This document shows positions 13,674 to 48,256 of a stretch of 64,000 nt of DNA, piece by piece (the stretch's first letter is position 1; the number at the start of each line of letters is the position of its first letter). Location of the stretch: NCBI GenBank assembly GCA_947455215.1, contig CANGNA010000001.1, positions 52,800 through 116,799 on the forward strand. The letters are read 5' to 3'. A program made the position numbers and the translations under genes. Source of the stretch: Chitinophagaceae bacterium. GTDB taxonomy: Bacteria; Bacteroidota; Bacteroidia; Chitinophagales; Chitinophagaceae. The notes under the pieces were generated by a model. The model had not been told where the DNA came from and ran no database searches. It worked only from the letters and a program-made list of their open reading frames with translations.

Positions 13674-13874
13674 GTCCTCGTTTGTAACGAGGATCCTCCG
13701 GTCTGGCGTTTGTAACGCCCGTCAGATATCTTTATTACGGGAGTTCGGCAAAGCCCAGTTGGGCGCGATTTGCAATCGCGTCCTTGCGTGTGGGCGATCT
13801 CCAGATCGCCGTAGTTGGCCGGTACCTGTCTGCTGATATGCGATCTTACTTCGCCGATGTTGGGATTGCCAACA
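13674..13874. repeat. Cluster of REP-like hairpin doublets
   Basis: gtcctcg-tttgtaa-cgaggat, ggcg-tttgtaa-cgcc, gcgatt-tgc-aatcgc, ggcgatct-cc-agatcgcc. Confidence 0.75.
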
Positions 13875-13955
13875 CTTACAATTGTATTATAAATACTGCC
13901 TGACTGGTGAAACCCTATCCACTCATAGCCCCACTAAATATGTGCATATCTTTAT

Positions 13956-14198
13956 TTGGAAACCGACCCCGCCAAACCGTACCTTTACCCCCCAATAACC
14001 GTACTAAAAAATGAGATCCTTCTTATCCCTAAATCCTGCAAATCCTGATCCGGAAAAATTGCACAAAATTGCAGACACTGCAAATAGAAAGAAAAGTATC
14101 ATATTAGCAACACCTTACAAAACAGCACAATAGGCCCCTGCATCTAAAGTAAAATTGCCGGCAACTGTCATTTTTTTTCATCGGCAGAAAACTGCAAT
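13956..14198 (+). repeat. Dispersed ~240-bp non-coding element; inverted copy at 44951-45277
   Basis: Exact shared blocks aaatcctgcaaatcctgatccggaaa, aattgcagacactgcaaatagaaagaaaa, ttacaaaacagcacaata. Confidence 0.85.
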
Positions 14199-14203
14199 TT
14201 CCA

Positions 14204-14266
14204 GAATTGAGCCATTCAGCTACCCGGCTTGTCACCCTGAGCTTGTCGAAGGGCATTGAGCCATTA
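14204..14266. repeat. GAGCCATT octamers flanking a GTCACCCTGAGCTTGTCGAAGGG repeat, directly after the birA stop
   Basis: gaattgagccattcagc ... gtcaccctgagcttgtcgaagggcattgagccatta. Confidence 0.7.
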
Positions 14267-14998
14267 ATAAGCCCATACCGCCTGCCCATGCACGTAGTTC
14301 TTTATAGTGCCGTCTTCCAGCTGCACCGCCAGCGTGCCATCCGCATTAGCATGTAGTATGGTGGTATTTACCGGCTGGTCGTCCTCCAGCAGCACCTGCT
14401 GTTGCCCCCGGCGGAAGAGTAGGGCATTATAATCTTTCAGCAGGGTAGCAGCATCTTTAGGAAAGCTGGTGGCGTAGAAGATCGCCTCACGCAGCGCATT
14501 CAATATGGTTCGCCTGTCAAAGTCCTTACCCGATGCTGCCTTAAGAGATGTGGCATGTGGCAGCTCTGCAGGAAACGATGGCTGCAATATGTTAAGGCCC
14601 AGGCCTATCACCGCGTAACTCCAGTTACTGCCACGTAGCACATTTTCTATCAGTATGCCGCCTGCCTTTTTGTCATTAATAATAATGTCATTGGGCCATT
14701 TCACCTGCACCTGCCAGGTGTCGTGCAGTTGTTGCAGTTCGTTAACAATGGCCGTAGCCACGGCGGCGTTGAACAGGAATTGCTCGGCCAGCGTGTGTTT
14801 AGGGGCTATTATCATGCTCATCAGCAGGCTCTGGCCGGGTATGTCTACCCACGTGCGGCCGCGTTGCCCCTTGCCTGCCGTTTGCTGGTTGGCCACTATT
14901 GTCAGGCCCGGGTGTGCCTTATTGCCATCTATCAGTTGCATGGCATAGTTATTGGTGCTATCTGTTAAATCCAGCTCAATAATATGGGCATCGGGCAT
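14264..14998 (-). CDS. birA: Biotin-[acetyl-CoA-carboxylase] ligase (no N-terminal HTH)
   Basis: DSTNNYA, QTAGKGQRGRTW, KWPNDI, KAGGILIEN. Confidence 0.95.
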   Translation of the reverse strand: MPDAHIIELDLTDSTNNYAMQLIDGNKAHPGLTIVANQQTAGKGQRGRTWVDIPGQSLLMSMIIAPKHTLAEQFLFNAAVATAIVNELQQLHDTWQVQVKWPNDIIINDKKAGGILIENVLRGSNWSYAVIGLGLNILQPSFPAELPHATSLKAASGKDFDRRTILNALREAIFYATSFPKDAATLLKDYNALLFRRGQQQVLLEDDQPVNTTILHANADGTLAVQLEDGTIKNYVHGQAVWAY

Positions 14999-43518: not shown

Positions 43519-44814
43519 TTAATGTGCAAAATCTGTATCAAAGTTCAGCATCCTTTCTTTTGGCGGGTTAAAGTAGCCAAATTTCAGGTTGGGGAACTCC
43601 TCGTGTATCAGGTCGATCATTTGCTTTATGCCCATGCATTCGCCGGTGTCGGCAACGCCCATTTTGCCCAGGTACCAGTCGGGGTCTATGTTGAAGTTGC
43701 GCCACTGTATCATGCTGATATCTGTTTCGCGGATGAATGCGCATAGGGCATCAAACTCGGCAATGCTATCCGTCATGCCCGGGAACACGAAGTAGTTGAT
43801 AGACGACCAGCCGCCGTATTTGCGAACGATCTTCAGGCTTTCCTTCAGGTCGTCGAATTGGTAGTTATTGGGCTGGTAGTATTTGGTATAAATGTCGGGG
43901 CGGGCAGAGTTCATGCTCACGCGTATGCTATCCAGGCCGGCCTGCATCAGCTGCTCTACTGCAGCCGGTTTGCTGCCATTGGTGTTGATGTTGATGCTGC
44001 CTTTTGGTGTGTGTTTACGTATCTCTATAATGGATTGTTTGATGGTCTCCCACATCAGCAAAGGTTCGCCTTCGCAGCCCTGCCCAAAGCTTACGATGGG
44101 GTAGGGTGCTGTCTCCAGGTGAGGTACGGTATACTCGGCTATCTCCTCGGCTGTAGGTTTGAAGGTAAGCCTGTCTTGTGTAGATACAATGGTCTCGTCT
44201 TCGGGCTGGAACGATATACAACCTATACAGTTGGCATTACATGCCGGGGAAGTTGGTATCGGGCATTCCCAGCGACCCATAAAGTAGTTGCGCGATGCCG
44301 GGCAGCTGTAGGTAAGTGTGCATTTTTCGGCCAGGTGTTTTACCAGCCTGTTGTGGGGGTAGGCAGCCACAAATTTGTCTACGCCTTCCCTTATCGTGCG
44401 GTCGTCGTAGCCGGCGCATTCCTGGCGGATATCCCGCTCTATACGTACGGCAGGTACATAAAATTTATTGTTGAGCCAGCCTGCCGCGGTGTAGGAGAAC
44501 AGGGGCAGGGTGGGTGCATCTGGCATGGTCTCGAAGGCCGCCAGGTACAGGCCGGTATGTGCCGGTGGTATAAAGGCTGCTACAGCCCATCCTTTTTCGC
44601 ATAGGCGCATTTCGCCGGTATTCACGTCAATACCTATGCCGCGCCTGCCGGGCAGTTCGTATAAGGTGCCGCCATCGGGCAATTCTATCCATTCATCTTC
44701 GGGTATCTCTCCGGCATCCCAGCCACTGCGGCCGGCCACGTATAGGGTGGTATCTTCGAAAATATTGCCTTTACCGTCGGAAAATAATATATAAGGACTT
44801 GTCATTTGTTGCAT
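43519..44814 (-). CDS. Radical SAM protein of unknown function
   Basis: CNANCIGC (CX3CX2C), SFGQGCEGEP; TATCTTTG box at 44826-44833 (-). Confidence 0.92.
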   Translation of the reverse strand: MQQMTSPYILFSDGKGNIFEDTTLYVAGRSGWDAGEIPEDEWIELPDGGTLYELPGRRGIGIDVNTGEMRLCEKGWAVAAFIPPAHTGLYLAAFETMPDAPTLPLFSYTAAGWLNNKFYVPAVRIERDIRQECAGYDDRTIREGVDKFVAAYPHNRLVKHLAEKCTLTYSCPASRNYFMGRWECPIPTSPACNANCIGCISFQPEDETIVSTQDRLTFKPTAEEIAEYTVPHLETAPYPIVSFGQGCEGEPLLMWETIKQSIIEIRKHTPKGSININTNGSKPAAVEQLMQAGLDSIRVSMNSARPDIYTKYYQPNNYQFDDLKESLKIVRKYGGWSSINYFVFPGMTDSIAEFDALCAFIRETDISMIQWRNFNIDPDWYLGKMGVADTGECMGIKQMIDLIHEEFPNLKFGYFNPPKERMLNFDTDFAH

Positions 44815-44950
44815 TGCTGAAACGGCAAAGATACCTGCTATTTTCCGTTTTCGGTGCATCGGCGATGGCCTGATCGTTACGCCGGCATTATAAATGCCTG
44901 CGAACTGTGATGACATCCGGTGGTTACAACAAGTTTTTGCCAGGTGATCT

Positions 44951-45277
44951 ATTGCAGTTTTTGCATAAAGAAATTTTTGATGGTTTTGTGCAATTCTACT
45001 TTAGGTACAAGGGGTATTGTGCTGTTTTGTAAAGGGTTGCTGATATGGTGTTTTTCTTTCTATTTGCAGTGTCTGCAATTTCCGGATCAGGATTTGCAGG
45101 ATTTTGGGACAAGGAGGATCTCATTTTTTGTGGGGTTTGGGAGGTTTAGAAAAGGGTTTATTGTGGGGTAATGGTACGATCTGCGAGGGGCGGTTTTCAA
45201 ATATTTTTTTGCACAAAGTAAAGTGGCCTCCCCATACGCATTTCTGCCGATGGAAATTTTTGATAGTTGCCGGCAAT
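44951..45277 (-). repeat. Inverted copy of the 13956-14198 element, with its terminal block present at both ends
   Basis: See the 13956-14198 feature; ttgccggcaa/ctgccgatg block at 45237-45277 and a diverged one at 44951-44998. Confidence 0.8.
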
Positions 45278-45497
45278 TCTGCTTGAGGTAATGTTTATAA
45301 GCTACTGAAATGTAGTGCAGGTATAAAAATGTTTGATATGGCGTTTTCTGCCGATGTGGCATTTTTGCCGGTGGCAAAAATGCCGACTGTTTTGTAGTGT
45401 GATAGTGTCATAGTGAAAGATCTTTTATGCCGGGAGAGGCATGCTCCGGCACCACAAATATACGCCGCGGGAGGGGGCTGTTCCAAATATTTTTTAG

Positions 45498-47659: not shown

Positions 47660-48256
47660 CTAAGTGCGCCTATATTGTTCGAACCAATACTTTTCAATGC
47701 ATTCGGTCACATGAATAACATTGTACACCCCGTGTCGGCCTGTCTCATAAAATCCTGCGGAACTATGTGTGTAGTCTCCCGGGAACTGTACGAGATCCCA
47801 TTTTTTGCTGACCGGGTTGTTATGAATATAGTTTAATTTTTGATTGATGAATGCATATGAGTGACACAATTTAGCATCGAATGATGGCTTAAACACTTCA
47901 TGCAACTTGCCGTTATTCTTGTCGGAGGTGGAAACGCCAGCCGAAAGTACAGATAGTATATCTGTACTTTTGTTCAACTTTAATCTATTTACAATATCAT
48001 ACGCCATGAAGCGCTTTGCGTTGCCGATCATAGTATTAATGCTTTGTGTGCCTGGAGTAAACCCTATCAATGCATGAATGTGATTAGGCATGATAACATA
48101 ACCGGTGACGTGGTGACCCTTTTGCTGCAAAATGTCGAACCATTTATAAACCAGGTCATACGCATTGGTCAGTTCAAATAACAGTAGCCATTTGAAGTTA
48201 GTAAATGTGATAAAATATATGCCCGGCTGGTAGAGGTGGGGTTTGTTTACTGGCAT
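47660..48256 (-). mobile_element. REP-associated tyrosine transposase (RAYT, IS200/IS605 TnpA-like HUH-Y1)
   Basis: YFITFTN..W, YVIMPNHIHAL (HUH), KLNYIHNNPV (catalytic Tyr region), HSSAGFY; flanked by inverted REPs. Confidence 0.92.

Follow-up and report, generated by a model that had tools for sequence, protein, structure and literature searches.

What is the non-coding block of about 240 bp at positions 13,956-14,198 of the analysed DNA (hereafter the window, 64,000 nucleotides of a Flavipsychrobacter MAG from a freshwater lake), and why does an inverted copy of it stand near 45 kb with the same end again turned towards a conserved gene? The answer that we prefer, while holding it with real doubt, is that the block belongs to a non-autonomous repeat spread by recombination which, judging from its sequence features, would combine a promoter and a translated leader in one cassette, placed where variable islets border core genes. 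The evidence is presented below together with the alternatives against which this reading has to be weighed.

Three copies of the repeat in the window

The preliminary description of the block had reported the inverted copy, and the alignment bore this out: positions 14006-14190 match 44958-45287 in inverted orientation through three long gap-free arms of 67 nt (91% identity), 51 nt (94%) and 47 nt (81%). The window contains three copies of the family, A (plus strand), B and B2 (both minus strand). Copy A (13900-14200, +) belongs to sub1, a recent subfamily; nhmmer delimits it at 13932-14197 (C1:66731-66996) and the covariance model at 14047-14192, and its sub1 5' extension begins with CTGACTGGTGAAAC in the alignment. 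Its 3' end is directed towards the stop codon, at 14264, of birA (ORF 14264-14998, minus strand), so that it faces the 3' end of this gene. Copy B (44955-45222, −), also of sub1 and with a degenerate -7 box TACCATTA, is located about 95 nt upstream of the conserved promoter region of a radical SAM gene (PF04055), the start of which was reassigned to the ATG at 44805 on the minus strand. The native -7 box of this gene, TATCTTTG (44825-44832, −), is kept in the sister species, which has no element there. As first described, the same end of both copies faces a conserved gene, namely the 3' end of birA for copy A and the radical SAM gene for copy B.

Copy B2 (45237-45492, −), a member of an older and more diverged subfamily, is placed head-to-tail upstream of B with its 3' module abutting B, and it includes a perfect 13-bp hairpin (45357-45385, −). 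Since B2 stands in tandem upstream of B, a terminal block appears at both ends of the 45-kb copy; this earlier observation was accurate, with the diverged tandem copy as its cause, and the partial match near 45343 corresponds to internal GGCAG/TGCC words of B2.

Other short repeats are found around copy A. A 25-nt word, TGTCACCCTGAGCTTGTCGAAGGGC (14230-14254), located between copy A and the birA stop codon, represents a separate short repeat family with about 40 occurrences in the genome at 96-100% identity. Octamer words of the TTGAGCCATT type are present on both sides of the element (14206-14222 and 14256-14266) and upstream of many copies, and in older subfamilies a related word is the outermost component of the 5' module. 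In metagenome runs X1 and X2, the summed contig depth over 13923-14223 is about 105, versus about 10-11 for the single-copy flanks. This excess fits about ten near-identical sub1 copies collapsed in the assembly graph; the metagenome contigs aligned to the region end at the repeat and give paralogue joints only.

Size and distribution of the family

Throughout the 4.2-Mb assembly, the unit of about 270-300 bp gave 47 nhmmer hits, and 38 copies were recovered by a covariance model, R1, built on the conserved 3' half of the repeat (BLAST was also used). With R1, 21 copies were detected in one congeneric sister species (G003), and none in 12 other genomes of the genus or in 120 other genera of the family, each represented by one genome. 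An exact-pattern scan of 185,579 species genomes matched only an "uncultured Flavipsychrobacter sp." MAG, which is this same sister genome, and pattern and similarity searches gave no match among JGI metagenome contigs, plasmids and phages. Rfam yielded no hit at the gathering threshold in the whole window and, at E<=10 on 13850-14280, chance-level hits only (at most 17 bits). The runs that contain the repeat sequence are all DNA metagenomes, and no RNA run was among them. We tentatively regard the family as a young, lineage-specific, non-autonomous interspersed repeat, a view that stands jointly with the promoter-leader cassette reading and at the same level of confidence.

A putative promoter module

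A promoter-like module is conserved among the copies. In copy A, it spans 13955-13987 (+) and comprises a -33 TTTG at 13955-13958, a 21-nt spacer and the -7 box TACCTTTA at 13980-13987; many copies carry the perfect -7 box TATCTTTG. The consensus of the 5' module, TTGTGCATATCTTTATTTGGAAACCGCCCC...CGTAyCTTTrC, reads as TTTG-N21-TAnnTTTG, to be compared with the Bacteroidota -33 TTTG / -7 TAnnTTTG promoter consensus cited in PMC7641319. The Bacteroidota sigma-A motif and its spacing (about 17-23 nt) are present in most copies. Furthermore, upstream of the ORFs of this genome TAnnTTTG shows a twofold excess on the sense strand, with a peak 20-40 nt before the start codon, indicating that the organism uses this type of promoter. 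By motif, the repeat holds a putative Bacteroidota sigma-A type promoter. On the other side of the balance, the -7 box of copy A and of several others has TTTA for TTTG, which counts against the cassette reading.

A sigma-54 reading of GGCAG-N-TGCA was rejected on inspection, as the spacing is right in some copies only and the downstream part is not conserved. Several copies show a strong terminator-like hairpin directly ahead of the -33 region (GCATGATACTAC..GTAGTATCATGC, then a T run); loci of this hairpin repeat are C66:13640-13830, C2:46810-46990, C19:22200-22250 and C8:~34030.

A leader frame kept open

In 37/39 copies from both species, an ATG occurs 31-59 nt past the -7 box. Its frame runs on for 35 codons or more in 34/37 copies (92%), as compared to 23/74 for the other two frames, with a typical open length of about 45 codons (range about 40-58). 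After de-replication to 24 representatives of less than 78% identity, the frame is open in 23/24 versus 17/48 (Wilcoxon p=9e-5). In copy A, this leader ORF occupies 14011-14133 (+; ATG, 40 codons, TAG). The stop of the frame is usually found at or just before a conserved word, CTAAAGTAAAA (14144-14154 in copy A, +), which holds stop codons in two frames and precedes hairpin P3 on its immediate 5' side.

The leader peptide is not conserved: the subfamilies read the conserved nucleotide words in all three frames, and the variable columns of sub1 are distributed over the codon positions as 18:16:17, with no third-position excess. Since the frame is kept open while the peptide is free to vary, selection seems to act on openness and not on the peptide sequence. 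The same frame differences and flat codon-position counts rule out a conserved small protein. The initial statement that the block has no convincing ORF is right in that no coding signature is present, but it does not hold for the frame as such, given the 40-codon ORF of copy A and its equivalents in the 34 copies mentioned above. As an alternative, the maintained frame could belong to a true small protein, a point that counts against the leader-cassette reading.

Two covarying hairpins

Two family-wide hairpins were predicted by RNAalifold: P2, within the leader frame (YTGCM, a loop of 3-5 nt, KGCAR), and P3, just past the usual stop (YTGCCGG, an A/U-rich loop of about 20 nt, TCGGCAG). In copy A, P2 is located at 14069-14083 (+; TTGCAG-ACA-CTGCAA) and P3 at 14155-14187 (+; TTGCCGG, a 19-nt U-rich loop, TCGGCAG). 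In copy B, P2 is found at 45064-45078 and P3 at 44961-44993 (both −), the latter with a double compensatory change, TTGCA...TGCAA for TTGCC...GGCAG. The covariation analysis that the preliminary description had called for revealed that both hairpins covary across 47 copies: the closing pairs of P2 are AU 22 / CG 19 and UA 19 / UG 18 / CG 4, and P3 is 94% paired, with UG 28 / CG 10 / UA 8 and GU 26 / AU 15. The observed covariation score was reached by no shuffle. Read on the opposite strand, the numerous G·U pairs would become C·A mismatches, which assigns the structure to the promoter strand. The structured RNA that had been envisaged is supported in part, by this covariation and by the fit of the G·U pairs to the promoter strand. 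The fold of a single copy is not unusually stable (z = -1.0), which counts against the cassette reading.

The 3' half consists of reiterated GGCAG / YTGCC words permitting alternative pairings. For instance, the terminal CTGCAATTT of copy A (14192-14200, +) is an alternative partner of the 5' arm of P2 (14066-14074), with 9/9 complementary positions. Two candidates for further structure were rejected: helices beyond P2 and P3 amount only to alternative 4-bp pairings among the repeated words, and a pairing of the start codon with the P3 loop (AAAAAATGA with TCATTTTTT) shows inconsistent compensation outside sub1.

A promoter of its own, covarying hairpins and, in each copy, a conserved ATG with an open frame would also be expected if the family consisted of about 40 independent trans-acting small genes, the product being a structured small RNA some 230 nt long or else a fast-evolving protein of about 45 aa, with gene adjacency being incidental. 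In the small-RNA version, P2, P3 and the repeated GGCAGAAA words would be putative protein- or RNA-binding sites. We find such genes rather unlikely: the peptide is unconserved, being read in three frames with no third-position excess, an identity of 60-80% between orthologues would be weak constraint for a trans-acting RNA, and the family is missing from all other genus members examined.

Orientation and neighbouring genes

The arrangement of the copies relative to genes bears on the same choice. In tandem intergenic spaces, 21 copies are in sense and 2 in antisense orientation (p=7e-5), a strong bias that argues against trans-acting genes. A further 13 copies lie in divergent and 7 in convergent spaces; the latter proportion (7/43) is about the background rate and, like the lack of any function common to the downstream genes, would suit trans-acting genes. 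Indeed, the downstream neighbours are unrelated housekeeping genes, such as prfC (RF3), ffh (SRP54), tgt (TGT), atpB (ATP synthase a) and def (peptide deformylase), and further ones are an ABC-F gene, a parE-like gene (GyrB/ParE-like) and those for homogentisate dioxygenase and the radical SAM enzyme. The median distance is 138 nt to the downstream ORF versus 314 nt to the upstream ORF. A canonical terminator-like site follows only 4/26 co-oriented copies in a scan for the canonical hairpin-plus-U type, which Bacteroidota terminators may escape. The scarcity of terminators again disfavours independent small genes, and it suggests that transcription would read on into the neighbour. A replication-linked orientation was discarded, with agreement between copy orientation and local GC skew at only 14/38.

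According to the preferred cassette reading, transcription would start at the element's own putative promoter and run towards the adjacent gene, and translation of the leader frame would protect the transcript from early ending. At most copies, with no canonical terminator to stop it, transcription would continue into the promoter region of the neighbour and its gene. The outcome would be a portable upstream promoter and leader added at the edge of variable islets.

Our confidence in this scheme is limited because of the imperfect -7 boxes and of the convergent copies. Seven copies, copy A included, face the 3' end of a convergent gene and count against the cassette, since a promoter role for such a neighbour makes no sense. 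In addition, prfC and the radical SAM gene possess a native promoter box 3' of the element, conserved in relatives without the element there; that these neighbours retain their own promoters counts against the cassette.

Variable DNA behind the element

The two sides of the repeat differ in composition. The median GC over 2 kb is 45.2% behind the copies versus 49.2% in front (Wilcoxon p=4e-6), and GC is lower upstream in 30/37 copies of this genome; at control pseudo-sites in 196 long element-free spacers, the difference is 0.1 points (Mann-Whitney p=3e-8). The averaged profile shows low GC over about 2.5 kb behind the element, from which this tract is separated by about 250 nt of GC-richer sequence in which REP-type hairpins are present at several copies. 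The sister genome shows 44.5% behind versus 49.3% in front, with GC lower upstream in 13/19 copies (p=0.02). The statistics clearly show a polar placement with respect to variable DNA, and this second species repeats it. At least eight sites are common to both species. Among eight shared sites, the downstream DNA is collinear at 8/8, synteny breaks right behind the element at 5/8, and both flanks are conserved at 3/8. The ORFs behind sub1 copies are orphans with no Pfam matches.

Four lipoprotein-like orphan paralogues of 136-148 aa with 34-54% identity were noticed (C19:599-1045, C24:25265-25684, C88:14607-15017 and C3:100279-100698). Those on C19, C24 and C88 lie in the 3.2 kb behind a copy, and the fourth, on C3, behind a short, weak fragment of the 5' module.

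The block had at first been described as marking the junction between island and core with one end facing the core. A search of the genome and a relative for copies bordering variable regions established that the placement is non-random, and the GC step and synteny breaks make the junction a family-wide tendency, the 3' end being the one turned towards the conserved gene. The role initially proposed, that of an anchor, attachment site or element end tied to island formation, fared worse: both flanks are kept at three of the eight sites, copies persist while the DNA behind them changes, and no terminal inverted repeats, recombinase or clean empty site were found. A match to the end of a known IS, which had been named as evidence against that role, was not encountered in the collections searched (ISfinder not among them).

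Two further explanations take the variable DNA as their starting point. The repeat might be a DNA-level attachment or landing site, or the conserved end of low-GC islets, with its hairpins acting as single-stranded DNA for a HUH/RAYT-type or other recombinase. The low GC that extends for about 2.5 kb behind the element in both genomes and the synteny broken on the upstream side only agree with such a site, but the conservation of both flanks at 3/8 shared sites does not, and a site of this kind gives no role to the promoter, the ATG and the maintained frame; we consider it improbable. A boundary device, to which we likewise assign a low probability, would combine both functions: a transcribed cassette would be fixed to the core gene, with accessory DNA exchanged at its 5' edge, and would serve as the favoured site of islet landing or recombination and as translation-coupled promoter/insulator. 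The accessory DNA, i.e. REP arrays, RAYT genes and orphan exported-protein genes, would be repeatedly inserted, and the core gene would be kept expressed regardless of upstream arrivals.

Spread of the copies and their association with REP and RAYT

The identities between copies suggest how the family multiplied. The sub1 copies are 79-90% identical over 150-320 nt, and orthologous copies of the two species are 60-82% identical. At shared sites, a copy of this genome is 89% identical to its paralogues and 61-64% to its orthologue. Moreover, sub1 copies occupy sites where the sister species has its own subfamily, including one with both flanks conserved. Such sub1-like identity at orthologous sites is explained better by gene conversion or by overwriting through recombination than by independent insertions. 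Multiplication and homogenisation would probably have occurred via recombination or gene conversion between copies.

An inverted-repeat scan of 13880-14230 gave no terminal inverted repeats, only internal pairs; in the alignment, the ends of sub1 are CCGACTGGCGAAAC and CTGCAAT(T)T. A MITE is ruled out by the missing terminal inverted repeats. No common direct repeat, as expected from target duplication, stands beside the aligned copies, and no long ORF-enclosing version that could be a parent element exists in the genome. Upstream of prfC and of the radical SAM gene, where an empty site was sought, unrelated DNA is present in the sister species and in other members of the genus, and exact ends of the unit were not recovered either. 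A further reading would make the family a miniature mobile element that is purely selfish and does nothing for the host, its polarity and neighbours reflecting where insertion is tolerated. Such an element could account for the recent burst of one subfamily (80-90% identity), the confinement to two species and the co-occurrence with other repeat families in long spacers, but neither terminal inverted repeats nor target duplication nor a parent element is seen in the genome, copies are kept at a minimum of eight orthologous sites, and in both species even diverged subfamilies keep the promoter, the ATG, the open frame and the paired hairpins. Pure selfishness is in our opinion quite unlikely.

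The association with REP and RAYT sequences is strong in this genome. REP doublet hairpins occupy 13755-13830, directly behind copy A; hairpins of this same type border RAYT genes at other loci of the genome. A RAYT-like Y1 transposase gene lies at 47663-48256 (−; tblastn hit C1:100462-101055) in the islet behind B/B2. The other RAYT-like genes are C63:19596-20144, C3:99496-100038, C14:3725-4274 (a pseudogene) and C53:9523-10071. Each of the five genes of this one clade has a copy of the element within 2.2 kb, and four of the genes lie behind that copy; apart from RAYT-like genes, no recombinase family recurs in the 3.2 kb behind copies. Four copies have RAYT-type REP hairpins within 400 nt on the upstream side, while no copy has them downstream, and in several copies REP sequence replaces the outer portion of the 5' module. 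These REP and RAYT associations would favour the DNA-level attachment site. Against it, 0/4 RAYT genes of the sister genome are near a copy, genomes throughout the genus have RAYTs but no element, and the RAYT-flanking REPs (GGCGATC..GATCGCC, GCGAAGTC..GACTTCGC) differ from P2 and P3. Given the 0/4 in the sister genome and the genus-wide RAYTs, RAYT as the mobilising enzyme was rejected, and the link is taken as co-accumulation in hot spots and not as proof of mobilisation.

Comparison with known systems

Most of the interspersed repeats known to carry promoters come from Proteobacteria and Firmicutes, and BOX elements among them are modular, with a 5' module, a variable middle and a 3' module, an organization that the repeat shares. 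Correia elements of Neisseria are promoter-bearing interspersed repeats as well (PMC3024310, as cited in PMC3575422). Correia, ERIC and BOX elements are small, abundant intergenic repeats with promoters, RNA structure and co-transcription with neighbours, traits in which the repeat would resemble them. It differs in that neither terminal inverted repeats nor a TA-type target duplication was found, and in its Bacteroidota-type promoter, conserved start codon, open frame and strong orientation bias.

In trpL-type attenuators and Rho-dependent leaders, a promoter is followed by a short translated frame, hairpins with alternative pairings and the gene. The layout of the repeat matches that of such leader-peptide (uORF) regions, in which the leader sequence can matter little. 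Unlike them, it has no U-tract terminator or regulatory codon runs, its frame extends over 40-58 codons, and it sits upstream of the gene's own promoter and recurs before unrelated genes. On this analysis, the likeness concerns a possible mode of action, not membership.

Putative mobile promoters (PMPs; Matus-Garcia, Nijveen & van Passel 2012; PMC3575422) are comparable in that highly similar non-coding sequence precedes unrelated genes in one genome, with no tie to a known transposon. Their definition asks for an identity of 80% or more over a minimum of 50 nt in front of genes with non-homologous coding sequences (PMC3575422); the sub1 copies, with the identities and lengths given above and unrelated downstream genes, come under this definition, the -150 to -50 window not being applied literally. 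In contrast to PMPs, the repeat is defined from end to end (promoter, leader frame, two hairpins), exists in about 40 copies rather than pairs, occurs in two species only and is associated in a polar manner with variable low-GC DNA. REP/REPIN-RAYT systems (Bertels & Rainey 2011, PMC3116915) are also hairpin-containing intergenic repeats, and many copies of the element in this genome have REP doublets and RAYT genes immediately behind them. REP and REPIN sequences are palindromes of about 20-40 nt, often in inverted pairs and flanking a cognate RAYT, whereas the element, at 270-300 bp, is 10 times longer, has other hairpins and forms no inverted pairs around RAYT genes, which occur genus-wide without it. 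To judge by its sequence, the repeat is neither a MITE nor a REP nor an Rfam family and would be a variant of promoter-bearing repeats.

The repeat represents a compact, well-delimited Bacteroidota case that bears on transposon-free promoter movement. If the cassette is active, it would show a lineage rewiring or buffering dozens of housekeeping genes in a short evolutionary time, and it could provide a portable expression module for Chitinophagaceae. If the repeat is only selfish, it would still be a useful marker for hot spots of accessory-gene turnover in lake bacteria.

The 5' leader of prfC

One of the neighbouring genes, prfC, has a long 5' leader that is conserved in the genus (9 genomes; C35:41432-41600 in this genome) behind a CGACCTTTGC promoter box. 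AGTA-rich repeat blocks of this leader (e.g. GTAGTAAGTATA) stand opposite complementary ACTTACGACT repeats close to the start codon, and from species to species both sides seem to vary in concert. By these features, the leader resembles a structured region that regulates release factor 3.
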